Source: an uncultured virus (IMG/VR IMGVR_UViG_3300028586_000785)
Taxonomy: Duplodnaviria > Heunggongvirae > Uroviricota > Caudoviricetes
Virus record (IMG/VR): IMGVR_UViG_3300028586_000785
Length of the DNA: 53,150 bases
Direction: 5' to 3' (one strand)
The notes below the pieces were generated by a model. It ran no database searches. It was not told the DNA's origin and saw only the letters and a program-made list of their open reading frames with translations. This document shows, in pieces, positions 31,106-46,694 of this stretch (positions within the stretch are counted from its first letter, which is position 1; each line of letters begins with the position of its first letter). The translations under genes were made by a program, and so were the position numbers.

Positions 31106-31182
31106 TGGTCGGAATGACAAGATTTGAACTTGCGACCCCCTGTCCCCCAGACAGGTGCGCTACCAAGCTGCGCCACATCCCG
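31106..31182 (-). tRNA. tRNA-Pro(GGG)
   Basis: Cloverleaf, encoded CCA. Confidence 0.95.
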
Positions 31183-31213
31183 TTAGCCCTTTTGACGATA
31201 AGGGCATCGTTAG

Positions 31214-31287
31214 GGTGATCGACGGGAGTTGAACCCGCAACCAACAGGTTCACGACCTGCCGCTCTGCCAGTTGAGCTACGAAAACC
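31214..31287 (-). tRNA. tRNA-His(GTG), degenerate
   Basis: G-1:C73 pair; two acceptor mismatches; C33 instead of U33. Confidence 0.65.
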
Positions 31288-31397
31288 ATACGCCAGGAAG
31301 CCTGGCTCTTGCTGTGTGAGTTTGTATTAGCCACTCACAGGCTCTGTGCGCCTGTCTCAGCGCCTAACATGTAGATGCTGAAATGAGCCACAGAGAT

Positions 31398-31563
31398 TGG
31401 TGGAGCGCCGTAGACTCGACCTACGGTAACGGTACATCGCTGCCCGCTATTTCTCTCTTTGGCACTACTGCATTCGACATGATGTAGGTTACCGAAAGAA
31501 CTGATGCCGCGTTCATGACTACTCCTGTTGTCAACAGGAAGGTTTCATGGACTCATTCACCCC
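31398..31563 (-). ncRNA. CCA-ended tRNA-like element (5' boundary uncertain)
   Basis: Ends CGTAG-GTCGAGT-CTACG GCGCTCC A CCA; 5' GGGGTG could pair with CGCTCC (G3:U70). Confidence 0.35.
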
Positions 31564-31565
31564 TG

Positions 31566-31639
31566 TCGGAATAGGGGGAGTTGAACCCCCGACCTCTCGC
31601 CCCCGAAGCGAGCGCGCTACCAAGCTGCGCCATATTCCG
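31566..31639 (-). tRNA. tRNA-Pro(CGG)
   Basis: Cloverleaf. Confidence 0.95.
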
Positions 31640-31995
31640 TAAATCGCAACCAAGCCAGTCCGGTTTAACAGCCTTCATGGAAGCAGGGTTATGATCCCTG
31701 AACTATGCTCTTGATCACTGGTGGATTATCACCACTCTTGTCACTTGGGCGACCAGTCAAGTCACTTGCTGTCTTCCACGATGGGTACGCAGTATTCGGA
31801 ATCTATACCTCACAAATCAGCAAGTCCAGCGAACACCCGTTAGGGCACTACCAGCAAGCTTAATCGTCTCATCCGCTTGTGATTCGAGCCAGGCACTCAG
31901 TCTTCATCACCAGACATCGTTCTTTCCACGGTGAACGACCACCCTCATCGACTCATTTCCTTGATGACTAATCAAATCTGTCGATGTCTCCCCAG

Positions 31996-32068
31996 TGCCC
32001 CGTACTGGACTCGAACCAGTGACCTACTCTTTAGGAAAGAGGTATTCTATCCGCTGAACTAACGGGGC
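31996..32068 (-). tRNA. tRNA-Arg(CCT)
   Basis: Cloverleaf. Confidence 0.9.
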
Positions 32069-32074
32069 ATATCG

Positions 32075-32545
32075 CTATACCGACTTCTGCCAAATCATGA
32101 AGTCAGTACCAACGTAGTAAACAACGTGCGGGTCCACATGAGTTGCAGTGAAGCCAGACGTAGAGAGAATGTGTTGCATGGATTTTGAACCAGGGTGAAC
32201 ACTTGCGGTGAAGTGCTTTGTCCCAGATGCCATAGCATCTTCAAGCAGCCTATCAACTATCAATCGACCGATACCGTGACCCTTAGTGGATACGTAGACA
32301 CCCGAGATATATCCGGACGTTACGTCAATGAAGCCGGTACCGACAATCCGCTCACCATCTCTCGCGATGAGGCAGATACTTGAATCCAATTTTGCAAGTA
32401 CATCAGTAGGGCTGTACTCACCATCAAGCCATGCTCCAATATTGGGATGGTCAAGATGGGGCGAAGCCAGCGAAACACTGGCTACATGGTCGATAACAGA
32501 TTGAACATCTCCGACATTCATCGGAGTGATTACCAGATTGACCAA
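32075..32545 (-). CDS. GNAT-family N-acetyltransferase inside the tRNA array
   Basis: IVGTG...ISGVYV..KGHGIGRLIV acetyl-CoA motif A. Confidence 0.75.
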   Translation of the reverse strand: MVNLVITPMNVGDVQSVIDHVASVSLASPHLDHPNIGAWLDGEYSPTDVLAKLDSSICLIARDGERIVGTGFIDVTSGYISGVYVSTKGHGIGRLIVDRLLEDAMASGTKHFTASVHPGSKSMQHILSTSGFTATHVDPHVVYYVGTDFMIWQKSV

Positions 32546-32573
32546 TGCAGTTTTCCATTTCGTTTACTTCGAG

Positions 32574-32646
32574 TGGATCTAAGGGGACTCGAACCCCTGA
32601 CCCCCTGCATGCCATGCAGGTGCGCTACCAACTGCGCCATAGACCC
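32574..32646 (-). tRNA. tRNA-Ala(GGC)
   Basis: Cloverleaf, G3:U70. Confidence 0.95.
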
Positions 32647-32647
32647 G

Positions 32648-32719
<72 letters not shown>

Positions 32720-32966
32720 ACAACCGCAACCAAGGCTGCGTTGTGCATGTTGTCTAGACTACTAGACCACGGTGTACCACCGGCTGATTTTTGATAAGAC
32801 ATCCTGCGCTAACAGCAAGTCAACGGGAATCAGAACCCGAAGAACCCAGAAGCCTCCACACGTAGGTGAGAAGACTTCCGGAAGTAGCAAGATTTTGTGT
32901 GAGTCCATGTGCACTGGGTTCTCATTTTGTACTTGCTGTTACCGAGAGATCCTGTCCCCGGCTCTG

Positions 32967-33039
32967 AGCCACCTAAGAGATTCGAACTCTTGACCTTCCG
33001 ATTACGAAACGGATGCTCTACCAACTGAGCTAAGGCGGC
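32967..33039 (-). tRNA. tRNA-Thr(CGT)
   Basis: Cloverleaf. Confidence 0.92.
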
Positions 33040-33062
33040 GAAGCACCTTGCGGTGCCGATGT

Positions 33063-33272
33063 TTAGTCCTCGTCGTAGACTGAAAAGTCAAACGTTCGAG
33101 GGAACGGGGTGAGGTTGTTGATGAAGGTGTCATCCTCCATGTTGTAAACCACACTACCCGACCGGTTGGCAGTGTTTTCGAGAATCTGACCCAACCTGAG
33201 TTGTGGGTTAGCCTTCCAATACCGACGTAGTTCGTCAAGTACCAGTTCGATGCGCTGTTCGTCTCTTGCCAT
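33063..33272 (-). CDS. small hypothetical protein
   Basis: GAGGA RBS; MARDEQRIELVLDELRRYWKANPQLRLGQIL. Confidence 0.65.
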   Translation of the reverse strand: MARDEQRIELVLDELRRYWKANPQLRLGQILENTANRSGSVVYNMEDDTFINNLTPFPRTFDFSVYDED

Positions 33273-33334
33273 GTGTTCCTCTTCCGTTGTGTTTCTGGAA
33301 GCATACACTGTGAGAGCATTCATCTGGATGTAAC

Positions 33335-33410
33335 TGGTGCCCCCGACTGGACTCGAACCAGCGACCTTTACTTTCGGAAAGTAGTGCTCTATCCACTGAG
33401 CTACAAAGGC
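33335..33410 (-). tRNA. tRNA-Arg(CCG)
   Basis: Cloverleaf, encoded CCA. Confidence 0.9.
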
Positions 33411-33413
33411 AAA

Positions 33414-33449
33414 GATGATAGCTGCTTCGTTTCCGACCTGACTATCACC
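33414..33449 (-). ncRNA. SRP RNA domain IV (helix 8)-like mini-hairpin
   Basis: GGTGATAG-TCAGG-TCG-GAAA-CGA-AGCAG-CTATCATC versus 4.5S RNA GUCAGG-UCC-GGAA-GGA-AGCAGC. Confidence 0.65.
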
Positions 33450-33461
33450 AGTACTGTGTGC

Positions 33462-33833
33462 CTATCTAGGCAACGAGGTTTCGAGATACATCTTCTGCAT
33501 CAATTCGGCAAAGAGTGCAACGAACTCGTCTTCGTCGAGAAAACCTGCGTAATCGTCACCTGTCACACCGTTCTTGAAAGTGACGTAATCACTCTCGGGT
33601 ACATGCCGAGCAGGACGACCAATTGTCAGCGAAGCGCAGTCGCTTCTAAATCGGAAATAGAACTGAGCATACCCAAGGTAAGTCCCTGTGGCTTGGAATG
33701 GTACTGCTCCACCAGCCCTCTCAAAAGAGAGACCAGGAAAGAGAGGTTCAATCCTGTCTTTTGCGACATCAATCATCTTGACAACAGGCTCGCTGTCATC
33801 GTTCTCATTCATATCTACACTGAGCATTGCCAT
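33462..33833 (-). CDS. hypothetical protein
   Basis: 123-aa ORF with GAGGGG RBS between tRNAs. Confidence 0.6.
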   Translation of the reverse strand: MAMLSVDMNENDDSEPVVKMIDVAKDRIEPLFPGLSFERAGGAVPFQATGTYLGYAQFYFRFRSDCASLTIGRPARHVPESDYVTFKNGVTGDDYAGFLDEDEFVALFAELMQKMYLETSLPR

Positions 33834-33846
33834 TCCCCTCTTTGAG

Positions 33847-33919
33847 AGCCGACTAGGGGACTTGAACCCCTAACCTACGCATTACAAGTGCGTTGCGCTA
33901 CCAATTGCGCCAAGTCGGC
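33847..33919 (-). tRNA. tRNA-Thr(TGT)
   Basis: Cloverleaf. Confidence 0.95.
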
Positions 33920-33981
33920 ATGTTCTGCTACTGAGTAAACAGTAGCAGAGTTGATGGTGAGTTCCAAATTGAGTACCTAGC

Positions 33982-34191
33982 TCAATAGAACACATCGATA
34001 TCTGCATACGTACTAGCACCCCCGCTTGACGTAACCATGATTTCTACCGCATTGGATAGACACAGTTCGCAACATCCGACTTCTACCACCCTGGTATCGA
34101 ACGAGATACGCTCTTCATCACCAACAGTGAATCCGTTTTCTCTCAGAATTTCTCTACCCCATGCAATCAACAACGACGACGAATTCATCAT
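33982..34191 (-). CDS. small hypothetical protein
   Basis: 69-aa ORF with GGAAGG RBS. Confidence 0.4.
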   Translation of the reverse strand: MMNSSSLLIAWGREILRENGFTVGDEERISFDTRVVEVGCCELCLSNAVEIMVTSSGGASTYADIDVFY

Positions 34192-34260
34192 TCACTTCCT
34201 TCCGCTTGTGTGAACCAATATTCCACACGCCTGAAGGTTGTTATGTGCTGCTGATTAGCG

Positions 34261-34333
34261 TGCGCCTGAAGGGAATCGAACCCCCGACCTGTTGATCCGT
34301 AGTCAACCGCTCTATCCCCTGAGCTACAAACGC
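34261..34333 (-). tRNA. tRNA-Arg(ACG)
   Basis: Cloverleaf. Confidence 0.93.
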
Positions 34334-34436
34334 AATGAGCGGGAAATTCGAGGATCAGTTACCGACACGCTCATGGGTAACCGCCTATTTGGACGAAGCT
34401 TTATACACGGTTGGTTATCGTCCATTGCAACCGTTG

Positions 34437-34509
34437 TGCCCTCGGCAGGATTCGAACCTGCGACCAAGAGATTAGAAGGCTCCTGCTCTATCCCCTGAGC
34501 TACGAGGGC
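34437..34509 (-). tRNA. tRNA-Arg(TCT)
   Basis: Cloverleaf. Confidence 0.93.
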
Positions 34510-34585
34510 GGGATGAGAGGTGTGGTCCCTCTACCAAGAGCGTTGTTGAGGCACTCGAAGTAGTTTCAACAAAACCACACCGTCG

Positions 34586-34657
34586 AGCGGATGACGAGAA
34601 TCGGACTCGCGACATTCACCTTGGCAAGGTGACGCTCTACCACTGAGCTACATCCGC
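34586..34657 (-). tRNA. tRNA-Gly(GCC)
   Basis: Cloverleaf. Confidence 0.92.
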
Positions 34658-34703
34658 ATGTGGTACTTACAAACCGCTGGTGACCCAGCAACTTGCAAAA
34701 CCG

Positions 34704-34798
34704 TGGAACTGATCGGGATCGAACCGATACCTTCTGAAACGCGCGCCGCTCCTTGCTCTACCCGCCACTATTGCAAATGGCTATTGAGCTACAGTCCC
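34704..34798 (-). ncRNA. tRNA-Ala-like RNA with a hairpin inserted in the D-loop
   Basis: GGGACTG/CAGTTCC-A (G3:U70); GCTC-AATA[GCCATT-TGCAAT-AGTGGC]GGGTA-GAGC; anticodon loop GG-CGC-GC; TTCGA T-loop. Confidence 0.75.
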
Positions 34799-35120
34799 AT
34801 GTATTCGGAAGCTAGGAAGCTTCATATAGCTAGCTTACCGAATCCTAAAGGGTTTGTCTAGTAAACAGTGACCCATTAGTGGTAATGCTGTAACCCCACA
34901 TTACTAGGGTGCTTACTCCATCGCCACTAATCGTCGCAGCTAAGGCGGGTAAAGCAAACCCGCTTCCCAGTTACTAGCTGGGAATCAGAGCCTCAGTGAG
35001 TTTGACTACTTCGATAAGCCACTACAGCTTCTCTCGGCAACCACTTTACTGAGGTTGAGGCTTGAATCTCCCCTCACATTGCGGTAGTTAGTCGCTATGC
35101 AAGAGCTTCATCAAGCTTTG

Positions 35121-35192
35121 AGCGGTCAAATGGACTTGAACCATCAACTCTTAGCTGGAAGCTAAGTTGCCATACCCGGAGGCTCTGACCGC
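35121..35192 (-). tRNA. tRNA-Gly(TCC), atypical
   Basis: Perfect acceptor and anticodon stems; G at position 8 and an unusual D-arm. Confidence 0.75.
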
Positions 35193-35270
35193 ATGTGGTC
35201 TTTTCTTCTTCTCGTACCCGGACTAGGAGACCTTACCTACCGGGACCATAATGGCTGATCATTTCCATCG

Positions 35271-35342
35271 AGCGGATGACGAGATTCGAACTCGCGACCC
35301 TAACCTTGGCAAGGTTATGCGCTACCACTGCGCCACATCCGC
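35271..35342 (-). tRNA. tRNA-Gly(GCC)
   Basis: Cloverleaf. Confidence 0.95.
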
Positions 35343-35605
35343 ATGTCGTGATGCACCTAGCTTATACGATTTCATCCAACGCGTTTGGATTCTTCGTACT
35401 TACTAGGTACTTCACTATGGCGCTTTCATCCATATGCTTCATAATGAAGTCTGCGAGAGCCGAATTCCGTCTCGCACCCAGGTCCGCTAGCCCTGTTTCC
35501 GGTTTAGTCTATGCAACCCCTCTACTCCGGCAGAGTCCTAACTTTTCACTGCGGTTCACACAGAGGCGTTAGGAAGCCTTCACCGTATTTCCGGTGATGC
35601 CACAG

Positions 35606-35676
35606 AGGGGATGACGGGAATCGAACCCGCGACATCAGTTTGGAAAACTGAGGCTTTACCATTAAGCTACATCCCC
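35606..35676 (-). tRNA. tRNA-Gly(TCC)
   Basis: Cloverleaf. Confidence 0.95.
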
Positions 35677-35821
35677 ACAGAGCCTAGCTCGTATTCATGA
35701 ACAACCACTGCAAGAACTACCAAGCAGTCATTATCCTAACCGGCGACTAGGGTATAAACAGTACACACACGTATCCGCACTCGGGGTAGTTAGTCCCTAA
35801 ACTTCAACAGCTTCTTGTTCG

Positions 35822-35895
35822 TGGATCTGACGCGACTCGAACGCGCAACATTCTCCGTGCAAGGGAGACGCTCTACCAATTGGAGCTACAGACCC
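35822..35895 (-). tRNA. tRNA-Ala(TGC)
   Basis: Cloverleaf. Confidence 0.92.
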
Positions 35896-36140
35896 ATGTG
35901 TTCCGTTTCCGCACGCTTGCAATCGTTTGGCATCAAAGGGAAGTAAGTCACGGAACACGAACCTACCGACTGTGCCGTCCACGTGGGAAGACACCCTGCA
36001 ATTATCTCAAGACCTTCATCGTTACATACCACCTGTGTCACCAGGCGCTCCCGAATCGACGGGAGAATGTTTTTACCAGACGTTTGACGACATCTGGTGT
36101 CTTGGTTTTTACCTAAGTAGACTAAGCTACGAAGATAAAG

Positions 36141-36214
36141 CGACCCTGACCGGACTTGAACCGGCGACCTCCGCCGTGACAGGGCGGCGCTCTAACCAAC
36201 TGAGCTACAAAGTC
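36141..36214 (-). tRNA. tRNA-Asp(GTC)
   Basis: Cloverleaf. Confidence 0.93.
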
Positions 36215-36272
36215 ATATTTCTAATTACGCTGTTGTGTTGTAAATATCCGAACCTCTTGACGAGATGTTACC

Positions 36273-36301
36273 AGCTTACACACCTTGTCTCCACTTGTCA
36301 A
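36273..36301 (-). promoter_or_regulatory. sigmaA-type internal promoter
   Basis: TTGACA-17-TAAGCT with extended TG. Confidence 0.7.
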
Positions 36302-36315
36302 GCCCATTTCCATAA

Positions 36316-36583
36316 TTCCCGTCGAAACGAAAGATTACCCACGGTAGAGGTCATCGGGGAGCATCCCAGCCAAAGCAAGGAGTTGATGAATCAGAAGGTT
36401 GGGGCGGTTCATCCCTACCGGAGTAGGGATTGGAATGGACGTGGAGGTCGTCAAGGTTCACCCCTTCCGCAGAAGGGAATGATTGGGTCTAACGGTCGCA
36501 GCGGATCATCCCTAGCGAACTAAGGAACTTCACAATGCGAAGGTCAGGGTGGAGCATCCCGTTACCGGGAACCTCTTGCGAGG
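36316..36583 (-). repeat. array of five degenerate structured repeats with ~48-nt period
   Basis: Plus-strand motif GGTY-N5-GGWKCAYCCC-N(6-10)-RGGA, with GGWKCA at 36358, 36406, 36455, 36503 and 36551. Confidence 0.75.
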
Positions 36584-36659
36584 TGGTGACCGTAGAGGGA
36601 TTTGAACCCCCGACATCTAGCGAGTCATGCTAGCGCTCTACCAACTGAGCTATACGGTC
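36584..36659 (-). tRNA. tRNA-Val(GAC)
   Basis: Cloverleaf, encoded CCA. Confidence 0.93.
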
Positions 36660-36831
36660 ATGTAGCACCTGTTTCGTCGGTTGCATACGTCGGACTTCGA
36701 CCGATGAATTTCATGCCGTGCGCACACCATGAAATCCAGCACACAACAGCACCGTGGTGCTGCGAGTCCCAATCTTAGCACATTGTCTGCTTATTGGAAC
36801 CCTACCTCATCAGAGTAGTGATGAAGTTGAG

Positions 36832-36906
36832 TGGGGTGAGCGGGACTTGAACCCGCGAATCGTCGAATTATGAGTTCGGTGCCTTAACCAGCTTGGCTAC
36901 CACCCC
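36832..36906 (-). tRNA. tRNA-CAT (Ile2 or elongator Met)
   Basis: Cloverleaf with CAT anticodon. Confidence 0.88.
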
Positions 36907-36961
36907 TTGTTCATAATAAGAGTGTAACCCGACAGACCAATCAAAGTCAAATCGAGCATCG

Positions 36962-37034
36962 AGGCGACGACCGGATTCGAACCGGCATAATCTTCTTTTG
37001 CAGAGAAGCGGCTGACCTTTCACACCACATCGCC
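36962..37034 (-). tRNA. tRNA-Cys(GCA)
   Basis: Cloverleaf, U73, weak D-stem. Confidence 0.88.
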
Positions 37035-37158
37035 ATATTGCCTAACCCGCCAACCCTATGATTTCTCATTTCCGTTGCTTGACTTCCCTCACGGACTGTT
37101 GTGGGAAAGTTAGGACTTCTGCGAGCGTTGCAACCTTACGTACCGGATACTCGCATTG

Positions 37159-37231
37159 CTCCTCCATGTGGACTCGAACCACAAACCTGTCGGTTAACAG
37201 CCGACTGCTCTGCCAATTGAGCTATAGAGGA
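37159..37231 (-). tRNA. tRNA-Asn(GTT)
   Basis: Cloverleaf. Confidence 0.95.
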
Positions 37232-37358
37232 ATATGGTGACCAAGACTAGGCTCCTGCTGAGGGAGCTTCCGACACCTTTCACCTAATCCAACTTCTCGG
37301 GCGCTTCGCCTACGCCATGTTTCAGTGACTGCATGATGAACCACATGCTACGGTTTTC

Positions 37359-37442
37359 GATAGTAAAACGATTCCGAGTCGATACCTCCCGTTAGTCCTC
37401 TGTACACAAGGCGGGCGTGCTGCCAATTACACCACTACTATC
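37359..37442 (-). ncRNA. tRNA-like RNA with expanded anticodon arm
   Basis: GATAGTAG/TTACTATC stem, canonical D-arm GTGT-AATTGGCA-GCAC, CCCG[CCTTGTGTACAGAGG-ACTAA]CGGG, degenerate T-arm. Confidence 0.55.
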
Positions 37443-37467
37443 TCATCGCTGGTATCCCAACGACTTG

Positions 37468-37540
37468 TACCCCCGGAGAATTTCGAAATCTCGACCCGCG
37501 GATTAAAAGTCCGATGCTCTAACCTCTGAGCTACGGGGGC
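37468..37540 (-). tRNA. tRNA-Lys(TTT)
   Basis: Cloverleaf. Confidence 0.9.
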
Positions 37541-37692
37541 TTATTCGGTCGGTGAGCGACTTTGCAGTATCCCTAGCCGACCTATTCGTTGACGAGGCAC
37601 CAATCCCCTTTGTCCTACCCAGCACGCAACGAAGTACCCGTTCTGGTAGTGAGATCCCATCGCAGCCTGCAAAAGCTGTATGGAATCGGTCG

Positions 37693-37765
37693 TGGCTCCG
37701 ACCGGCATCGATCCGGTGACCTCGCGATTTTCAGTCGTGCGCTCTACCAACTGAGCTACAGAGCC
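37693..37765 (-). tRNA. tRNA-Phe(GAA)
   Basis: Cloverleaf. Confidence 0.92.
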
Positions 37766-37910
37766 ATTTGGTGATAGGTCAGTGCAGTACATGCCTATCA
37801 CTCGCCAGTCGCTTCGTTTCTGCAAGTTCCACGACTGGGTATTGCATTCTCCGCACACCGGAGAAAACTAAAGGTATGAAACCCAGTGTTACTACCGACC
37901 TAAGCCGGAG

Positions 37911-37995
37911 TGCCCGTACCGAGACTTGAACTCGGATGGTCCGTAAGGACCGCTAGCACCTGAAGCTAGTGCGTCTGCCATTCCGCCATACGGGC
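37911..37995 (-). tRNA. tRNA-Leu(CAG)
   Basis: Cloverleaf with long variable arm. Confidence 0.95.
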
Positions 37996-38010
37996 ATGTG
38001 TTCAACCTAT

Positions 38011-38580
38011 CTATATTATTACGTCAGGTTTGTTGCTTTCGAATGACAAGATGTATTCAATCGCATTCTGCATGATTACAACATCATCATTGAAAAAACC
38101 TAATCCTACATTGCATCCATGACAAAGAAGACCTCTAACAGCACCAGTTTTATGCGAATGATCAATGCAGGGCGGCTTTCCTATCTCAGCGAAACCGGTC
38201 TTGCAAATCAAGCAAGCAAAGTCTTGGGCTACTAGCATAGCTTCGTACTCATGGTACAGCAGACCATACTTAATAAGTATCTTTCTTGTACGCTCAGCCT
38301 CTGATGAAATAGACCACTCTACTCTTTTACTGTCTCGTCGGCATATCTTGCATCTGCTTTGGTACCCATCGCCTCGACCTCTATTGAAGTCGAATTCAGA
38401 TACATTCTTTACCAAACTGCATTTGCTACATAGCTTCGTAACCTTCTGTGTAGAAGTCTTTTTGTTCTGGTAAGACCTAGCACACTCTTTACATTTGGAA
38501 CTGTAACCAGACTTCCTTGTTTTATCTGGATAGAAGTCTGACGATATTTTGTCTGTTTTACATTTGTAACATCTGAGCAT
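38011..38580 (-). CDS. endonuclease VII-family (homing-type) nuclease
   Basis: CLIC...IDHSHKTGAVRGLLCHGCNVGLG; two N-terminal CxxC...CxxC repeats; visibly AT-richer than flanks. Confidence 0.85.
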   Translation of the reverse strand: MLRCYKCKTDKISSDFYPDKTRKSGYSSKCKECARSYQNKKTSTQKVTKLCSKCSLVKNVSEFDFNRGRGDGYQSRCKICRRDSKRVEWSISSEAERTRKILIKYGLLYHEYEAMLVAQDFACLICKTGFAEIGKPPCIDHSHKTGAVRGLLCHGCNVGLGFFNDDVVIMQNAIEYILSFESNKPDVII

Positions 38581-38610
38581 TTGGCGATACTATCGCATCT
38601 GCTGAGTTAA

Positions 38611-38851
38611 TTCAATCAACCCGTAAGCCGAGTTCTGTTTTAGACTGTCATCTGTCTGAGCCGCCTACCCGTCTTTCAAAGGGCGGCAATTCCCTCAGAC
38701 TGTTTGGCGTTGCTTACATCCTGCACCCTACTTCTTAAGCTAGGCTTAGTGGTTCTTGAGCGACAAACCAAAAGTTTGTCTACCACACGGTAATTGCCGA
38801 AAAGCTCGGACTTTCCTAAGGCTTGCGCCCTCGACAGTCCAGTTGATTGAA
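38611..38851 (-). ncRNA. rnpB: RNase P RNA, minimal (~241 nt)
   Basis: P1 TTCAATCAAC/GTTGATTGAA; P2 GACTGTC/GACAGTC; CR-I AGGAAAGTCCGAGCT; AGCAA; AGACAGATG; CR-V ACAGAACTCGGCTTAC. Confidence 0.88.
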
Positions 38852-38854
38852 AAT

Positions 38855-38998
38855 TGGGTGACTGAGCCGGATTTACACCAGCGACCTCATGAGCCGTATC
38901 CTCATGAACTTTGTTACGAGCGTGGTTATCGTCTCAACCCGAGACACTCGGTATGCATCCCAAGTGTTTGTCTTTTCGCCCTACAAGCTACCAGTCAC
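38855..38998 (-). ncRNA. CCA-ended tRNA-scaffold RNA with ~70-nt branched D-loop insert
   Basis: GTGACTGG/TCAGTCAC-CCA; TCATGAG-GATACGG-CTCATGA anticodon arm; GCTGG-TGTAAAT-CCGGC T-arm. Confidence 0.7.
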
Positions 38999-38999
38999 G

Positions 39000-39072
<73 letters not shown>

Positions 39073-39281
39073 TTATGCAGGATTTCCCGGTTACTACCCC
39101 GGTTTACCTGCGACTGGTGCCAGACCAGTCAACCGCTCTTGCGATGGTCCTGCAAGAGAAGGCGCGCACTAGGGTATCCCGTAAGCGACACGGGGCAATT
39201 TCTGGTATTACTACCCTCCCGTTTGGCTGGGAGACAGCCTTTCTGCTAGTAAGGCAGAAACATTCTCTCGTTTCCGAGAAG

Positions 39282-39354
39282 TGCGCCTGGAGGGACTCGA
39301 ACCCCCAACCTTTTCGTCCGTAGCGAAATGCTCTATCCGTTGAGCTACAGGCGC
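39282..39354 (-). tRNA. tRNA-Arg(ACG)
   Basis: Cloverleaf. Confidence 0.95.
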
Positions 39355-39553
39355 ATTGTGTGGGATTATGACTCTTACCAAGGGGTCGGACACCCACGAC
39401 GCTCTTCACGCAAGAACGCTAAACGGGACACGCGGTCACCTCGTAGTCCATAAGGGACGGTGTTAAAGCTAACCGACAACTAGGTTACTACGGAGAACCC
39501 TGCCCTTGCACTTGGTGTGTGCGATTCATCTCACTAGCAGTACTACTAATGGA

Positions 39554-39629
<76 letters not shown>

Positions 39630-39829
39630 ATGTTGACGACTTAGAGGGCAGCTAATCATTTCTACTCCCATATCGTCTGATGAGGTTAACGCTCGGTACT
39701 CATCCATCTTGCGGCACCCTTGCAACCAAGGACCGCTAGATACCGCCGGTTTCCCTTTCGGGACGAACATGCTCCCCCGCGCTGGTCAAGTGATTAGTTC
39801 GCCAGTTATGCAGTTTGTCATGTTCCGAG

Positions 39830-39903
39830 TGGTCGTAGGTGGACTTGAACCACCGACCCCTTCGTTATCAGCGAAGTGCTCTAACCAACTGAGCTATACA
39901 ACC
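39830..39903 (-). tRNA. tRNA-Ile(GAT)
   Basis: Cloverleaf. Confidence 0.95.
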
Positions 39904-39965
39904 ATTGCCGCTTTCGCGGCGTTTCCTCTATGTAGTTACCAAAGTAGTTCCTTGTTGATATCTCT

Positions 39966-39995
39966 ACCTTAGCAACATGTTTGTGTTGTTGTCAA
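39966..39995 (-). promoter_or_regulatory. sigmaA-type internal promoter
   Basis: TTGACA-18-TAAGGT. Confidence 0.65.
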
Positions 39996-40020
39996 GTCCA
40001 AACGAGAAAAAGTTTGGAAG

Positions 40021-40111
40021 TGGAAACGGAGGCGGGATTTGAACCACTTATGCGCGTATGAAAGCCTCTAGGTTATGAGCCTAGCAAGATACCGAACTTC
40101 TTTACTCCGTA
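40021..40111 (-). tRNA. initiator-Met-like tRNA(CAT) with insertion in the variable/T region
   Basis: CTAGG-CTCATAA-CCTAG, U1.U72 mismatch, encoded CCA, ~14 extra nt before a mispaired T-stem. Confidence 0.6.
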
Positions 40112-40113
40112 AG

Positions 40114-40188
40114 TGACGCATACGGGACTTGAACCCGTAACCTTCGCCGTGAAAGGGCGATGCAACTGACCAATTGTGCTAATGCGCC
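40114..40188 (-). tRNA. tRNA-Glu(TTC)
   Basis: Cloverleaf. Confidence 0.92.
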
Positions 40189-40294
40189 AGAACTCTCAAT
40201 ACGAGAGCCTTTGCGGACTGGATACCGCGACCACGATGCAATCATCTGCCATTTCTCTTTGTCTCCACCGGATTCCAGGAGAGACATTGAGCAG

Positions 40295-40368
40295 TAGGGA
40301 TATGCGGACTTGAACCGCAGACCTCTTCGTTATCAGCGAAGCGCTCTAACCAACTGAGCTACACCCCT
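40295..40368 (-). tRNA. tRNA-Ile(GAT)
   Basis: Cloverleaf. Confidence 0.95.
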
Positions 40369-40467
40369 AAGTGGTTGCTCCGAAAAATCTCGACACAACC
40401 GGTATTGGCGAGAGATCTCTTCGTCACTTACGGTAATGAGCCGATAGTGATGATTGAAGAGGAAGCG

Positions 40468-40540
40468 TGGAGTCTAGGAGAATCGAACTCCTGACATCCT
40501 GCTTGCAAAGCAGGCGCTCTACCAACTGAGCTAAGACCCC
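40468..40540 (-). tRNA. tRNA-Ala(TGC)
   Basis: Cloverleaf. Confidence 0.95.
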
Positions 40541-40748
40541 GAACAAAACCGGCATTTGAGAAGTGCGTATCTAAACTCGGGCTTCTCGCGGTAATCTCTT
40601 ACCAATTCACCTGACCTCTCGCTTTCACGCTAGGTCCAACTCGCTTGCCGGTGTCGGAACAAACCTTGCGGTTCATGCCTAGCATCTTCTAGTTACAAGC
40701 AGAAGATGCTATCTATAAATCCCAGGTCTAAGACCCTTCGTTGTAACG

Positions 40749-40822
40749 TTGCGGGGGATGGATTTGAACCACCGACTTCTAGGTTATGAGCCTAGCGGGC
40801 TACCGAACTGCCCTACCCCGCA
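40749..40822 (-). tRNA. tRNA-Met(CAT), initiator-like
   Basis: TGCGGGG-TA-GGGCAGTTCGGTAGCCC; CAT anticodon. Confidence 0.9.
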
Positions 40823-41010
40823 TCACTGTTCCTCGATACTAGCACAGAGGCTATGCTCTGCACAATAGTTCGTGGAAGATAAATGGTCTCGCTGCGAGGA
40901 TCGATCCCCGCACTGCCTTGGACGACAGCCAATGCCCGGGCGACTGGTAAGGGGATATCACTCCCTACCGCACTGACTGCGACTGTACAATCTACGTCAG
41001 TAACCATAAG

Positions 41011-41084
41011 CACCCCGTACCGGATTCGAACCGGCATCTTTACACATATATGCAAACGACATTCTCCGTTAGTCGCAACAGGGC
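41011..41084 (-). ncRNA. tRNA-like RNA with 6-nt anticodon loop (TATATG)
   Basis: GCCCTGT/ACGGGGT acceptor, CGAC/GTCG D-stem, GCCGG-TTCGAAT-CCGGT. Confidence 0.65.
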
Positions 41085-41163
41085 ACCTTCCAAGTCACCT
41101 TCATCTAGAAATCAGGTGACTCTTCGGTTGAGACGGCTAAGAGCCAGTGGCTCTCACCGTTTG

Positions 41164-41236
<73 letters not shown>

Positions 41237-41354
41237 ATGTGCTGCGCGAAGACTATCTGAGTAAGCTTCCTCATACGACAACCGCAGCTTGCGCCCCGCA
41301 CGGAACAATCATCCCGCCGAACTTGAATCGAGACCTTGCAAAGCCTCTCAACCG

Positions 41355-41431
41355 TACCCCCAGATGGACTTGAACCACCGCCTCCCGCCACACACGGACG
41401 AGCGCTCTGTTCTCTACTGAGCTACAAGGGT
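41355..41431 (-). ncRNA. tRNA-like RNA with aberrant D-loop and anticodon loop
   Basis: GCTC-AGTAGAGAACA-GAGC (no GG), CTCGTC-CGTGTGT-GGCGGG, canonical T-arm. Confidence 0.6.
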
Positions 41432-41548
41432 ATAACTGGATACTAACCCGACCCAGCACAGGCATCAAATTGTTCTACATGAGGTTTGATGAACTCGCGT
41501 CTTGTTCGTAACCCCGTCAAGCTTTAGGGGCATTGTTGCAACATTGCG

Positions 41549-41622
41549 TGCCAACTACCGGAGCCGAACCGGTGACCTACTGCTTTTCAAACAGTCGCTC
41601 TGTCCAACTGAGCTAAGATGGC
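41549..41622 (-). tRNA. tRNA-Phe(GAA)
   Basis: Cloverleaf. Confidence 0.88.
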
Positions 41623-41750
41623 AAGTGGGTTGATTACGCCTCAGTAGTTCAACCCTGGTGCAAAAGACCTCCTGAGGAAGGCTACGTAGTGTCTTTCGCT
41701 AGTTATCTAACCCTCCAATGGTTCCGGAGTGCGGAGTCTTTGGGTTATCG

Positions 41751-41824
41751 TGACGCTGACGGGACTTGAACCCGCAACCTTCTGGCTGAGAACCAGATGC
41801 AACTGCCAATTGTGCTACAGCGCC
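41751..41824 (-). tRNA. tRNA-Glu(CTC)
   Basis: Cloverleaf. Confidence 0.92.
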
Positions 41825-42033
41825 ATAACAACTTTTCGCATCAGGACGATTAGCCCCTGCATCTCACCAGAACTAACTAGTGCGGATTTCTTTATCCCAT
41901 GCGATGTTGTGTTCCTAGTGTGGTCTATCAACCGGCTCCCTACACCGGAATCTCCCGCCCTCGGCGGTTGGGTTGGACTTTCCCTATTGACATGTGTTTT
42001 TCAGGAGACACTAGTACGTCCTGCACATTTACT

Positions 42034-42063
42034 ACCTTACAGTAGTAGCTTCTCTCTTGTCAA
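42034..42063 (-). promoter_or_regulatory. sigmaA-type internal promoter
   Basis: TTGACA-18-TAAGGT. Confidence 0.65.
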
Positions 42064-42088
42064 GTCGAAACAAGAAGTTTTTGAAACG

Positions 42089-42163
42089 TAGCGCAGACGG
42101 GACTCGAACCCGCAACCTTCGCCGTGAAAGGGCGATGCAACTAGCCGATTGTGCTACTGCGCC
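42089..42163 (-). tRNA. tRNA-Glu(TTC)
   Basis: Cloverleaf. Confidence 0.92.
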
Positions 42164-42404
42164 AAACACTAAGCTGAGTATGACCAACTTAGGATGCCGA
42201 TGGATACATCATCATGCGCAGCGGTCAGATATTCACCCGACATTCCTACACAAAGCGTTCCACCTCAATATCAGCAACCTCCGGCAAGAGGTTTCATACT
42301 GCTGTCCTAGGGGTATACGGGCTAATACCTAGGAACCCAAAATGACCTTGCCGGGTCATCCCGTTAGATAATGAGTGTAGTCAAGACCTTCCTCATCATC
42401 TTTG

Positions 42405-42478
42405 TCGCTCAGGGCAGACTCGAACTGCCGCATAACACCGTTATGAGCGGTGCGCCTTACCATCTTGGCTACTGAGCG
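42405..42478 (-). tRNA. tRNA-CAT (Met or Ile2)
   Basis: Cloverleaf with CAT anticodon. Confidence 0.88.
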
Positions 42479-42628
42479 TCAGAAGTCCATCGTACTGTCA
42501 TCACGACGTTCGATGGACCTGATTGGTGATGCATGATAAGCGTGCAATAGCAATCACCGGGCAACATCATTACAGCAACGGCACTCATTGCAACTACCAT
42601 TGCACCGGTAGTCCTGTAAATCAGTGCG

Positions 42629-42710
42629 TGCCCGATGAGAGACTTGAACTCTCACGTCCGAAGACACAGGAACCTAAATCCTGCGTGTCTGCCAATTTCA
42701 CCAATCGGGC
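42629..42710 (-). tRNA. tRNA-Leu(TAG)
   Basis: Cloverleaf with long variable arm. Confidence 0.95.
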
Positions 42711-42714
42711 ATTC

Positions 42715-43039
42715 TGGTGGTCCCTAGCCGGACTTGAACCGGCACCTCCGCCATCCTAATCGCATACGCTGGGCGGCGCTCTACCTAAACCCACCTTCAC
42801 AAGCCTTCCAGTGCGCTACTGACCTCCGATAATCACCTTTGCTAGTTCTCGTCTTACTCACGCAAGCAGTGTTCCCACAGCCTGTCAGGGGTTTCGCCTG
42901 ACTCCTTTTTATAGCTTATGCGATTGTTACCGTAAGCTCTTACTTGCGCTTTCTTCCGAGTTTCACATCGGCTTTCTCTTTGGTGTTTACACACCTTGTT
43001 TCTTGCTCCAACACCAAGGGTTCATTGAGCTATAGAGAA
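42715..43039 (-). ncRNA. 325-nt CCA-ended tRNA-scaffold RNA with ~237-nt D-loop insert
   Basis: TTCTCTA-TA-GCTC-AAT[GAACCC...GGGTTT]AGGTA-GAGC-G-CCGCC-(19-nt loop)-GGCGG-AGGT-GCCGG-TTCAAGT-CCGGC-TAGGGACC-ACCA. Confidence 0.75.
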
Positions 43040-43099
43040 AATCTAGGTCCAAGTGTCATCTTATGCTTCCTGGTAATCAGGGCTGCTTGAACTCTATTG

Positions 43100-43190
43100 C
43101 GGAGAGGGTGGGATTTGAACCCACGGTAGGATGTGACACCTACGGCAGCTTTCGAAACTGCTGCACTAAGCCGGACTATGCGACCCCTCC
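43100..43190 (-). tRNA. tRNA-Ser(CGA)
   Basis: Cloverleaf with long variable arm. Confidence 0.95.
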
Positions 43191-43364
43191 AAAACTCATG
43201 TGAAGCTATCGATGGGCAGTTCCTTTCGGAATACATCACCTGCCGTCAACGTCTGCCGACGTATGAGACGACTCGATACCACTTCACACCATCCACAACA
43301 GCGATACCATGCTGTTCGATGACTTTCTAATCCCTTTTTGGTATCTGAATCAGAACATAATTCG

Positions 43365-43438
43365 GGTGGACGACGGGGCTTGAACCCGCGACATCCGGCT
43401 CCACAAGCCAGCGCTCTACCAACTGAGCTACGCCCACC
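43365..43438 (-). tRNA. tRNA-His(GTG)
   Basis: Cloverleaf, G-1:C73. Confidence 0.95.
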
Positions 43439-43478
43439 ATATCATTGCAACAAGCCAGTCACGCCGGTTGCGAACCGA

Positions 43479-43597
43479 CGACGCTTGGGGATTCGAACCC
43501 CGCATACAATGATGTGCTGCAAGTTTTCGGCTTTTCGTAACCGCAATGGGGTTGCGCCCCATCAGCCCCTCTACATAGGCTGTGAACTTACGAGCGT
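43479..43597 (-). ncRNA. tRNA-scaffold RNA with three hairpins in the D-loop
   Basis: ACGCTCG/CAAGCGT, AGTT/AACT D-stem enclosing CAGCCT..GGGCTG, ATGGGG..CCCCAT and CGGTT..AGCCG; GGGG-TTCGAAT-CCCC. Confidence 0.55.
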
Positions 43598-43871
43598 TCT
43601 TTTTTACATCTGAACGGGCATCGATTGCATTCATTTGCCTCGGTGCTTGAAGTGATGGTGTATTCGCACAAGGGTTCACATAACCCCTCCCTCGGATTTG
43701 CCGTCTGCGACGATAGGCTCCTAGGACCGATCCGGTGTACAAGTGTGGAAGAACGCCTCTAATCGCATCTCTACGTTCTCAGTAAGACTCACCCATGCGA
43801 TGCGATTTCTCTACATACCTTGCGGCGTACATGGAAGCCTTGCCTTACTGCAAGTACCCGAAGGTACTTTG

Positions 43872-43944
<73 letters not shown>

Positions 43945-44141
43945 GTATGTCGAAAGAGTGATCAAACCCTTCCGACCCGAAACAGCCGAAGCCATTCCGT
44001 AGATTTCCTAACGGGATCAACCGAAGCATCTTCTTGACGTAAGACACCTAGAATCGCAACGACTTAAATTCAGTTCAATGTCGTCATAGAACAGCCATTC
44101 ACCCAGGCTTACCGGGACTTTCGTTTGGAAGACGAGAAGTG

Positions 44142-44232
44142 CGGAATCGGAGAGATTTGAACTCTCGGAACCCTTTGAGGGGTTCGCCACCTTTCCAAGA
44201 TGGTGCACTCGGCCAGACTATGCGACGATTCC
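44142..44232 (-). tRNA. tRNA-Ser(GGA)
   Basis: Cloverleaf with long variable arm. Confidence 0.95.
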
Positions 44233-44428
44233 ATAAAGCCTTTTCAGTAAAGACCGCGAGCTATTGCAACACGGCACCCCATCTGAGTCATCCAAGGCAA
44301 TTGCTCCTTTCAGTGGTATCACCGCCGATGTACTTTCTGACGGTTAGCCAGAAGTTGCATCAACGGTGCTGAATTGAGCGAGGACTAAAATGTTCTCCCA
44401 TACCAAGGGTTACTTAGATTAGCCTTTG

Positions 44429-44517
44429 CGGAGTCGGAGAGATTTGAACTCTCGGTACCCTTTCGGGTACTCCACCTTAGCAGGGTGGTGCACTAAGCCA
44501 GACTATGCGACGACTCC
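44429..44517 (-). tRNA. tRNA-Ser(GCT)
   Basis: Cloverleaf with long variable arm. Confidence 0.95.
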
Positions 44518-44589
44518 ATTTTGCTCAACCAACTTCGTTGAGCTTGTTTCCTCTTTTGTGTTTTCAAGATTCGTTGTTGCTATAAACCA

Positions 44590-44619
44590 ACCTTAGCAGG
44601 CTGGTTTTCCTTTTGTCAA
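44590..44619 (-). promoter_or_regulatory. sigmaA-type internal promoter
   Basis: TTGACA-18-TAAGGT. Confidence 0.65.
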
Positions 44620-44663
44620 GTCGAAACCGAAGTTTCTTTGACATTTCCTACGACTGTAGGTTG

Positions 44664-44736
44664 TGGACGTTAGGAGATTTGAACTCCTGACCCCTGCCTT
44701 GCAAAAGCAGTGCTCTACCAACTGAGCTAAACCCCC
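44664..44736 (-). tRNA. tRNA-Ala(TGC)
   Basis: Cloverleaf with one G.G acceptor mismatch. Confidence 0.88.
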
Positions 44737-44752
44737 AAGGGCACAAACAGAT

Positions 44753-44908
44753 TTTACGTGACGGGACTTGAACCCGCAAGGAGACTCAGTGTGATATCCA
44801 TTTCTAGATACCCGCCTACTCCGGTGGATGTCGCCCAATGCTTTACAACCCACCGGCTGTAAAGTTTAGGTGCTAGTCCACTGCGTTTGCCAATTTCGCC
44901 ACACGCTA
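44753..44908 (-). ncRNA. tRNA-Leu-like scaffold with inserts in the anticodon loop and variable arm
   Basis: Leu-type D-arm GGCGAAATTGGCAAACGC, GTGGA[48 nt]TCCAC, ~46-nt variable arm, GCGGG-TTCAAGT-CCCGT. Confidence 0.7.
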
Positions 44909-44956
44909 CTGACTGTTTGTGAAAGGGAACGAGCATGTCTGCCCTATTTACCTTTG

Positions 44957-45043
44957 CGGAGCGGGTGGGATTCGAACCCACGGTGGTTTTACCCACGGCA
45001 GTTTTCAAGACTGCTGCACTAAGCCGGACTATGCGACCACTCC
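44957..45043 (-). tRNA. tRNA-Ser(TGA)
   Basis: Cloverleaf with long variable arm. Confidence 0.95.
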
Positions 45044-45362
45044 ATGTTGCTGGTAACTTTCTTCGGTTCGGTCAGTTCCTTTCGGAATACATCAACCTTG
45101 CCGCTTACTTGTCTATAGTCTGACAGAACCCAGCGATTTTGTCAACCCAATCTTATCGCGGCTGATTGGGAGTACCGCATTACCTCACGACGGGATGCCT
45201 TCGCGTCTAAGTAACTCTCCTACCCTATGGCATCAGGATATTGGAGCCAGAACTAATAAGTCTAGTCGGGGCTGCTCACGTTCAACAACCCCTCGGGGCT
45301 TTCACCCTATCCCGGTCATACCCTCCCGGTCTGGACTAAGGACTCTCACCTAAATATGTGCT

Positions 45363-45438
45363 CCTACGTAGCCTGTTACCATGCAGACGACCCATGAATT
45401 GTGGATCGTGCCGGTATCGAACCGGAACTTCTCGTAAG
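45363..45438 (-). ncRNA. circularly permuted tRNA-like element (YrlA/Y-RNA-like order)
   Basis: T-arm CCGG-TTCGATA-CCGG, then ACGATCC-(ACAATTCAT)-GGGTCGT closed acceptor stem, then D-like ATGGTAA. Confidence 0.6.
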
Positions 45439-45444
45439 TGGTAG

Positions 45445-45833
45445 TGGAGATGGCGGGAGTCGAACCCGCGTGTTGCTTGATAAGTCAAAATCTTCTACGT
45501 GCGTAGTCCATTTGGGGCGTTTATCGACTCTGGCGGGTTGGTATGGACACCGGCTCGCTATCGTCTAACTACCATGATTACGATACTTGCTACCCAGTAG
45601 TTAGGCGGCGTATCGGATTCCTCTTTGCTGATGCCTAGTTCCTGCCGTGAATCATTCTGCAATTGGAAGCTGAGACAGACTCCTTAGAGACCCTCAGCGA
45701 TTAAGCTGCGAGTGCGAAGTCGTTGCGAGATGCGTTTGCATTTCTTTTTGCCCGATGTGATTTACGTGGTCACCAGACAATCCACGGCACGCTTCCTTTC
45801 GCCTGTATCAACCAGTCGAAACCAAGCATCCCC
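45445..45833 (-). ncRNA. ssrA: tmRNA, tag (A)ANASRNDFALAA*
   Basis: 5' GGGGATGCTTGGTTTCGAC; 3' GCGGGTTCGACTCCCGCCATCTCCA; tag frame at 45701-45739. Confidence 0.95.
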
Positions 45834-46013
45834 TTTGGTGGACCCCTTTACGGAAAGCCCTGAGTCCAGCCAGCCCGAAGACTCTTTGGACACCGCCTCT
45901 TTCGAGGAAAGAATATGTGAAGATGGGGATGATTAGACTACGCGGGTTCATCCTGACCTTGATACATCAACACCCGGGTCATCTTCCTGACCGTTCTACT
46001 AGATGCTAATTCG

Positions 46014-46183
46014 ATTCCTTGGTGGGGCTTGAACCCACATTCTTGACTACCCGCTGAAGCAGGTCTGTTTTACCAATCTACGAATTAAACTACAGCTACC
46101 ACCAGGGTCGCTGGGAGGATTCGAACCTCCATCTCTTAAGACCTACATATCGTAGGCGCGCACCGCCAATGTGCTTCAAGGAA
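46014..46183 (-). ncRNA. tandem double-tRNA RNA with swapped acceptor strands
   Basis: Two D/anticodon/T-arm sets; outer TTCCTTG/CAAGGAA and inner CAGCGACC-CTGGT-GGTAGCTG stems. Confidence 0.7.
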
Positions 46184-46205
46184 AAATTGCGGCGAAAACG
46201 CCTTG

Positions 46206-46278
46206 CTCCCCCACGTGGACTCGAACCACGAACCGTTCGGTTAACAGCCGAATGCTCTGCCAATTGAGCTACAGAGGA
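46206..46278 (-). tRNA. tRNA-Asn(GTT)
   Basis: Cloverleaf. Confidence 0.95.
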
Positions 46279-46336
46279 ATATGTCTGCGTAGCAATACCG
46301 ACTCTACGGTACGATGCGCGTTACCACACCGTGAAG

Positions 46337-46646: not shown

Positions 46647-46694
46647 TGGTGTTTATGTTGTTGCATTGTTGCAAAAGGGTTTTGGAACCCTTCG

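Follow-up and report, generated by a model that had tools for sequence, protein, structure and literature searches.

Here we describe a predicted RNase P RNA of 241 nt in the tRNA array of a huge phage. The RNA lies on the minus strand of a 53,150-nucleotide stretch of DNA from an uncultured virus (hereafter, the window). RNase P RNA is the ribozyme that trims the 5′ end of new tRNAs; to our knowledge, its gene is normally strictly cellular and is regarded as that of a universal housekeeping ribozyme. On the evidence of sequence comparison, we consider the viral RNA to be a genuine but shrunken member of class A, in which the catalytic domain is complete and the specificity domain is cut down to a small remnant. 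The preliminary description of this DNA had assigned the RNA to a genomic island that would carry its own tRNA 5′-maturation ribozyme. The part of this claim that concerns the RNA holds up, as a reduced homologue with a selected fold is present, and such a ribozyme is its best reading because the fold of the catalytic domain is under selection. The part that concerns the carrier does not: it is a huge phage, of about 200 kb judged by a relative, and not a genomic island.

Identification of the RNA

The RNA was identified by its match to the Rfam model of bacterial type A RNase P RNA and by covariation among its relatives:

38611–38851, minus strand: reduced class-A RNase P RNA (RF00010 match and covariation in 19 relatives)

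Measured from P1 to P1 (38851–38611), the RNA spans 241 nt, which is the extent given in the preliminary description. When positions 38000–39000 were searched by cmscan with E-value reporting, positions 38608–38850 (minus strand) matched RF00010 (RNaseP_bact_a) from model position 1 to 367 with 79.2 bits and an E-value of 4.1e-24. The model has 367 positions and a gathering score of 100 bits. A default Rfam scan of the whole window, which applies the gathering threshold, reported one tmRNA, 64 tRNAs and no RNase P RNA; the RNA is missed there because 79.2 bits lies below the curated cut-off of 100. The match to RNaseP_bact_a to which the preliminary description had pointed is therefore found by E-value and falls short at the curated threshold. 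The cmscan alignment retains P1–P4, J5/15, P15–P17 and the 3′ strands of P2, P4 and P1, and the single-sequence fold of the RNA gives a z of −2.9.

Other weak Rfam matches within 38000–39000 (snoRNA models and a group II intron domain, with E-values of 0.5–6) were rejected as chance. Scans for promoters and terminators gave nothing above shuffles, with one promoter-like site versus 1.6 expected and three terminator-like sites versus 2.0 expected.

Fold and catalytic domain

The fold was assessed in a subtype set of 19 distinct RNAs that includes the RNA of the window (the duplicates L120 and L169 were dropped) and that was aligned by MAFFT without a structure reference. The secondary structure put to the test was derived from the sequence of the window, P4 and P6 being treated as pseudoknots. 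Across the 19 sequences, 90.1% of cells pair, versus 33.1–43.2% with slid partners, a comparison in which the drawn structure is favoured because it was taken from one of the aligned sequences. Compensatory changes on both sides were found in 48 of the 70 pairs. The covariation score of 0.549, as against 0.186 in shuffles, was reached by 0 of 500 shuffles. Covariation is distributed over P1, P2, P3, P5, P6, P15, P16 and P17, and argues that the catalytic-domain fold is under selection. The predicted elements of this domain are as follows, with pair counts for the 19 sequences:

38851–38842 with 38620–38611, minus strand: P1, both-side changes in 10 of 10 pairs
38839–38833 with 38649–38643, minus strand: P2, 7 bp, both-side changes in 6 of 7 pairs
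38831–38818, minus strand: P3 with a GCAA loop, both-side changes in 5 of 5 pairs
38805–38817, minus strand: CR-I and the 5′ strand of P4, AGGAAAGUCCGAG; the P4 strand 38813–38805 pairs with 38625–38632
38623–38638, minus strand: CR-V and the 3′ strand of P4, ACAGAACUCGGCUUAC, placed by cmscan, the alignment of 19 and the pair count
38799–38792 (5′ strand) with 38691–38684 (P17 loop), minus strand: P6, an 8-bp pseudoknot, both-side changes in 7 of 8 pairs
38662–38709, minus strand: P15–P16–P17 arm, with covarying pairs in P15 (3 of 4), P16 (3 of 4) and P17 (2 of 4)
38709–38706 with 38665–38662, minus strand: P15
38710–38712, minus strand: J5/15 linker CAA, the equivalent of E. coli A248

All helices of the catalytic domain, P1–P6 and P15–P17, are thus retained. 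They include every element that had been claimed beforehand (P1, P2, P3, both strands of P4, P6 and P15), each present on the minus strand. P5 shows both-side changes in two of its three pairs. The P4 helix comprises eight pairs and carries a bulged U. It is paired in 100% of cells, with two of its eight pairs covarying and the rest invariant, an invariance of P4 and its motifs that is partly forced, since exact P4 motifs served to retrieve the relatives. AGGAAAGUCCG is unchanged in 19 of 19 sequences, as are the GCAA at 38710–38713 (J5/15), the GG of L15 (GGGUAGG, 38664–38670), the GAU in CR-IV and the motif ACAGAA..CGGCUUA.

Two of these invariant motifs correspond to known points of contact with the substrate. 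In the available part of a review of bacterial RNase P specificity (PMC10731613), the GGU of L15 is the pairing site for the RCC at the 3′ end of the tRNA, and A248 in J5/15 reads the leader base at −1, N(−1). By analogy with that account, L15 of the phage RNA would pair with the RCC and its J5/15 would read N(−1).

The P18 helix is absent. At the 24-position stretch of the model between the 3′ strand of P15 and CR-IV, cmscan places 0 inserted bases, and no extra sequence is present at the P18 site in the 18 subtype sequences other than L211.

A remnant of the specificity domain

In known type A enzymes, the specificity domain docks the tRNA elbow. In the phage RNA, about 85 nt lie between the 5′ strand of P6 and the 3′ strand of P5, so that the strong reduction of this domain and the absence of P18, both noted in the preliminary description, are borne out. 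What is left is organized in three helices:

38720–38790, minus strand: remnant specificity domain, with P7, stem SA and hairpin Px

RNAalifold, run on the specificity region alone, returned three helices that are the same as those drawn independently. P7 (CC/GG) is invariant. Stem SA (GUGG/CCAC), in which three of four pairs covary, encloses a hairpin of variable length (38762–38780). Hairpin Px has 4 bp (38742–38745 with 38725–38728) and a loop of 13 nt (38729–38741) with the near-constant sequence A-R-C-Y-U-A-A-R-A-A-G-Y-A. The remnant helices could not be mapped onto P8–P14: the region has no recognisable P8, P9 or P12–P14, no CR-II or CR-III motif was recognised in it, and cmscan left P7–P14 of RF00010 unaligned to the remnant, which was handled as local insertions. 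In the available part of PMC5839562, P8 is the docking partner of P18; here, both are missing, which fits a joint loss. That the Px loop stands in for the classical elbow-docking module is offered as conjecture only.

The tRNA array and the relative

The RNase P RNA is embedded in a dense array and shares its strand with every tRNA gene in it:

31106–49989, minus strand: array of 67 tRNA genes and one tmRNA (ARAGORN)
45442–45833, minus strand: tmRNA, mid-array (RF00023, 125 bits), with the tag peptide ANASRNDFALAA
38999–39072, minus strand: tRNA-Lys(ctt), the upstream neighbour of the RNase P RNA (Rfam scan and ARAGORN)
37910–37995, minus strand: tRNA-Leu(cag), the next tRNA downstream (Rfam scan and ARAGORN)
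38011–38580, minus strand: homing-type ORF of the Endonuclease VII family (Pfam PF02945, 2.2e-18; phrog_2633, 5e-41)
29211–30410, minus strand: RtcB RNA ligase at the edge of the array (Pfam PF01139, 3e-120; phrog_1075)

The window is collinear with 61.7–114.7 kb of a 203-kb IMG/VR record (hereafter G001; CheckV completeness 96%) at 65–90% identity, with 38,623 of the 53,150 window bases aligned. G001 has 65 tRNA/tmRNA genes in 64.9–81.8 kb and carries an 85%-identical copy of the RNase P RNA (L119) with conserved synteny. In this relative, the RNA lies downstream of tRNA-Arg(acg), and only 2 nt separate its 3′ end from tRNA-Leu(cag), whereas in the window tRNA-Lys(ctt) is an extra upstream gene relative to G001 and the RNA is separated from tRNA-Leu(cag) by 612 nt containing the Endonuclease VII-family ORF. 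As the two genes are only 2 nt apart in the 203-kb relative, the 612-nt segment looks like a homing-endonuclease insertion into the array, probably a recent one. Because this insertion intervenes, the 3′ end of the window RNA would not be made by cleavage of tRNA-Leu(cag).

The homing-endonuclease gene inserted alongside, together with a score below the Rfam gathering threshold, is what host DNA that was captured and is now decaying, or a chance match to a few motifs, might be expected to show. We regard such an origin as hardly credible, as it is contradicted by the E-value of 4e-24, by compensatory changes in 48 of 70 pairs and by the synteny with an 85%-identical copy.

Leaders and 3′ ends of the phage tRNAs

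The array also allows the putative substrates to be compared with published preferences. Among the 67 tRNA leaders, U(−1) is found in 47, A(−2) in 39 and A(−4) in 35, and G(−3) in none, which gives the consensus A(−4), Y(−3), A(−2), U(−1); G(+1) is present in 49 of the 67 genes. In the available part of PMC10731613, U(−1) is read by A248, the combination A(−2)U(−1) is optimal and N(−4) is read by aromatic residues of rnpA. The leaders of the window match these preferences, and the tRNAs look like good, ordinary RNase P substrates.

At the other end, a C follows the discriminator in 60 of the 67 tRNA genes and a full CCA is encoded in 6 of the 67. A tRNA nucleotidyltransferase is present in the relative (L357:8389–10065 in G001, by PHROG match) and RtcB, which has a tRNA repair function, in the window. 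Taken with the few encoded CCAs, these two enzymes suggest a phage tRNA maturation kit.

Three odd tRNA-like genes were noted in the array and are probably the D-loop-expanded RNAs of the preliminary description:

40021–40111, minus strand: 91-nt ‘tRNA-Met’, 34.1 bits
41354–41431, minus strand: 78-nt ‘tRNA-Thr’, 38.3 bits, anticodon at position 38
48199–48271, minus strand: tRNA-like gene with a 2-base anticodon call

The presence in the array of such low-scoring, oversized tRNA-like genes raises the question of whether these RNAs, the tmRNA precursor or phage mRNAs, and not tRNA leaders, are the main substrates. A shrunken elbow domain would be expected to relax the dependence on T-loop and D-loop, in line with the tolerance of abnormal elbows that the preliminary description had suggested, and tmRNA and some phage RNAs are among the known targets of RNase P in the available part of PMC10731613. 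Even so, we consider this very unlikely: no specific link of the RNA to any of these was found, the leader consensus is common to the ordinary tRNAs, and reduced copies also occur in arrays made up of ordinary tRNAs.

Distribution of phage and related copies

IMG/VR was scanned for two exact P4 motifs at a set gap, which in the window is 169 nt. The scans gave three loci at gaps of 125–155 nt, seven at 155–185 nt and four at 185–215 nt. All 14 of these reduced loci match RF00010 over its full length, with 49.7–170.9 bits, four of them above the cut-off. Each lies among 3–31 tRNA genes on its own strand, with 0 tRNAs on the opposite strand, and in nine of the 14 a tRNA starts no more than 10 nt from the 3′ end of the RNA. 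At larger gaps, loci in an array (defined here as at least three same-strand tRNAs within 2 kb) account for 8 of 13 (215–245 nt), 11 of 28 (245–275 nt) and 6 of 20 (275–305 nt). Many of the larger-gap loci off arrays have repeated identical spacings, and their surroundings are read as host flanks. In this sample, the largest phage RNase P RNAs are thus of full size and the smallest of about 207 nt, and every reduced one is embedded in an array. In each of five phage records, there is exactly one match to RF00010, and that match is the reduced RNA.

The smallest examples lie in tRNA arrays on large contigs: an RNA of 207 nt (L123:3966–4172, plus strand, 118.5 bits) on a contig of 191 kb, and one of 209 nt (L122:3985–4193, minus strand) on a contig of 124 kb. 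Three further IMG/VR loci (L116, L121 and L127) form a high-GC subgroup with RF00010 scores of 50–60 bits and arrays in which tRNAs are spaced by a single base; they represent a lineage of their own among phage RNase P RNAs.

Elsewhere, the P4 pattern was found at no fewer than 116 loci in metagenomes and at 112 in species genomes. The possibility that the species-genome hits are all reduced RNase P RNAs was rejected after a check of five genomes, of which one has a sole copy of 255 nt, one a full-length RNA with the motif inside it and three an RF00010 match elsewhere. As not all of them are reduced RNase P RNAs, the 112 hits were used for a negative result alone, namely that the window-type specificity-domain motif is present in 0 of these 112 loci. 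The same motif is present in 5 of the 14 viral loci and in 15 of the 116 metagenome loci, the latter counted among the matches listed. A same-strand tRNA lies in the fetched flank of 16 of these 20 motif-bearing loci, again with the metagenome part taken from the matches listed.

A blastn search of GenBank phages with the window RNA and the RNAs of two relatives, a method that is blind to such short motifs, gave no match. In openly searchable full texts, we found no report of a phage, or of such an array, with a gene for RNase P RNA, and no paper there contains the phrase “phage-encoded RNase P”.

RNAs of the window type were also seen on two large metagenome contigs, of 883 kb (L188) and 885 kb (L185). 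The former has three tRNAs upstream of the RNA and ORFans alongside, and in the latter the RNA is flanked by type IV pilin-like ORFs. These contigs may represent small-genome cells in which the window type is the sole RNase P RNA, and hence a possible donor lineage.

Partner protein, expression and function

RnpA, the protein partner of the bacterial enzyme, was sought with PF00825 in five phage records with reduced copies, two of them at least 96% complete, and was found in none of the five; the same search was positive in 10 of 14 control genomes. Nor was RnpA found among the 40 ORFs of the window. Since the phage encodes no such protein, RnpA of the host is the most likely partner.

Assembled contigs from four metatranscriptome libraries span the RNA without mismatch:

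38354–38841: metatranscriptome contig cover, X15
38553–39270: metatranscriptome contig cover, X16
38525–38976: metatranscriptome contig cover, X17
38537–38835: metatranscriptome contig cover, X18

As these are assembled contigs with broad cover (20–28 of the 30 bins of a 5-kb stretch) and possible carry-over of DNA, they give neither the ends, nor the strand, nor the level of the RNA. Its expression is not contradicted by them.

The observations from which a function can be proposed are the homology of the RNA, its conserved fold, its place in the genome and the lack of a phage rnpA. In the reading that we favour, and that we hold to be probable, the RNA is catalytically active and, with RnpA supplied by the host, removes the leaders from the tRNA and tmRNA precursors of the phage. 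It would be transcribed within a long precursor of the tRNA array, would assemble with RnpA of the host and would cleave the 5′ leaders of the 67 tRNAs and the tmRNA, with the result that the phage gains processing capacity, or independence from host RNase P RNA, during infection. In the relatives in which a tRNA abuts the 3′ end of the RNA, cleavage of that tRNA would also free the ribozyme. Against this reading stand the score under the curated Rfam threshold, the loss of most of the elbow-docking domain and, in the window, the 612-nt insertion between the RNA and the next tRNA. On the loss of the domain, the available part of PMC5839562 describes a catalytic domain that cleaves alone, a P18 that can be spared once the specificity domain is gone, and the importance of a P6-type contact, which the phage RNA retains with 8 bp; in the E. 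coli constructs of that study, removal of the specificity domain lowers efficiency.

A more elaborate version of the same idea, tentative and in our view somewhat doubtful, would make the RNA the self-freeing ribozyme core of the phage tRNA-maturation kit, alongside RtcB and the CCA-adding enzyme. It would leave the polycistronic tRNA precursor by cleaving the tRNA next to its 3′ end, and would dock tRNAs via the Px loop, a new and much smaller module in the place of the classical P9–P14. Were it true, tRNA production would continue under a shut-off of host RNase P RNA or under tRNA-directed defences.

The absence of RnpA from five of five phage records is open to a different interpretation, in which the RNA is an active ribozyme that works without RnpA, either unaided or together with a phage protein that escaped recognition and takes the place of the specificity domain. 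There are many large family-less ORFs in the window and in the relative, and the 8-bp P6 could stabilise a protein-poor core. We consider this unlikely. A(−4) is found in 35 of the 67 leaders, at a position that is read by rnpA according to the available part of PMC10731613, which suggests an RnpA-type protein, and an unsystematic look found no conserved partner gene adjoining the RNA.

The lack of a phage rnpA also puts the RNA in competition with the RNase P RNA of the host for this protein, and its reduced specificity domain might weaken turnover, as the available part of PMC5839562 would allow. The RNA could then be a decoy or regulator that binds host RnpA or pre-tRNAs and so starves or redirects host RNase P, with catalysis irrelevant. 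This appears quite unlikely to us, as motifs that a protein sponge would not need (P4 with its bulged U, GCAA in J5/15 and GG in L15) do not vary in any of the 19 sequences, and the 67 tRNAs of the phage themselves need RNase P, so that blocking it would hurt the phage.

Relation to known RNase P RNAs and tRNA arrays

The phage RNA shares with type A RNase P RNA (RF00010; rnpB/M1) the succession P1–P2–P3, P4 with CR-I and CR-V, P5, P6, P15–P17, the GGU of L15 and the adenosines of J5/15. It differs from type A in its length (241 nt versus the 367-position model), the absence of P18, the three-helix remnant of about 85 nt and the sub-threshold score, and in being encoded by a phage within an array of tRNA genes, no rnpA having been found in the phage records checked. 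The best reading of these sequence features is that the RNA descends from type A RNase P RNA and works like it.

Three kinds of reduced RNase P RNA offer a closer comparison. In the available part of Lui, Nielsen & Arkin 2021 (PMC8172020), CPR bacteria have reduced RNase P RNAs that lack P12, P13, P14 and P18 and that were found at a lowered RF00010 threshold. In a Shapirobacteria genome that we examined, the only RNase P RNA is 255 nt long and scores 91.4 bits. The phage RNA resembles the CPR RNAs so described in being of bacterial type, in lacking P12–P14 and P18 and in matching RF00010 only at a lowered threshold, whereas they are the sole chromosomal gene of a cell and the phage RNA is viral and lies in a tRNA array.

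Archaeal type T RNAs of Thermoproteaceae, as presented in the available part of Chan, Brown & Lowe 2012 (PMC3579882), retain nearly all of the catalytic domain and have lost the greater part of the specificity domain; they are missed by standard models and have an archaeal core with a P2 of 3 bp, a shortened P15 and a P5/P15 linker of 2 nt. The phage RNA is like them in keeping the catalytic domain, in having lost most of the specificity domain and in being missed by standard models. Unlike them, it is viral and has a P2 of 7 bp, a P5/P15 linker of 3 nt (CAA) and a bacterial P15–P17/P6 arm, and the two reductions look independent. Finally, Eco CP RPR is a laboratory deletion in which a type A core without specificity domain and P18 still cleaves (Mao et al. 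2018, PMC5839562, available part). By contrast, the phage RNA is natural and conserved, and keeps a small, remodelled specificity domain. Phage RNAs of this type would represent a natural experiment in type A minimisation, with 241 nt here, down to 207 nt in phage relatives and an elbow domain that is nearly gone, and could provide compact natural scaffolds in structural studies and in engineering. The number of such RNAs is probably underestimated, because relatives below the threshold are invisible to default Rfam annotation.

With its dense same-strand tRNAs, tmRNA and homing endonucleases, the array itself is like the tRNA arrays of huge phages and mobile elements. Huge phages carry tRNA sets, and the tRNA array units of mycobacteria are reportedly dense tRNA clusters. 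A conserved viral version of RNase P RNA would add a ribozyme to the translation-related functions of huge phages, and would make it possible to test directly whether phages free themselves from the tRNA processing of the host.

Gene content and occurrence of the phage

Gene content was examined in G001 by a PHROG search that took in 74 ORFs of at least 250 aa. Matches were found to DNA polymerase, clamp loader, helicases and both ribonucleotide reductase subunits, and also to thymidylate synthase, NAD-dependent ligase, topoisomerase II, SbcCD and NAMPT. No capsid or terminase family was matched at 1e-10 among these 74 large ORFs. Most ORFs of the window have no family assignment, and those that could be recognised are typical of phages: two HNH endonucleases, the Endonuclease VII-family ORF, RtcB, a dUTPase, an RNase H, an N6/N4 DNA methylase and a DnaJ-domain protein. 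One further ORF adjoins an HD-domain phosphohydrolase:

22273–23013, plus strand: ORF matching a DruA-like (Druantia) Pfam family (2.6e-12) and, weakly, a Mom-like PHROG

DNA near-identical to that of the window was found in metagenome runs from leaf litter, phyllosphere, straw and plants (20 holders in 17 studies). One run that is labelled with a single organism (X4) holds 58% of the sampled words of window positions 36000–41000. It may be a culture that contains the window phage or a close relative, and so a possible pointer to the host.
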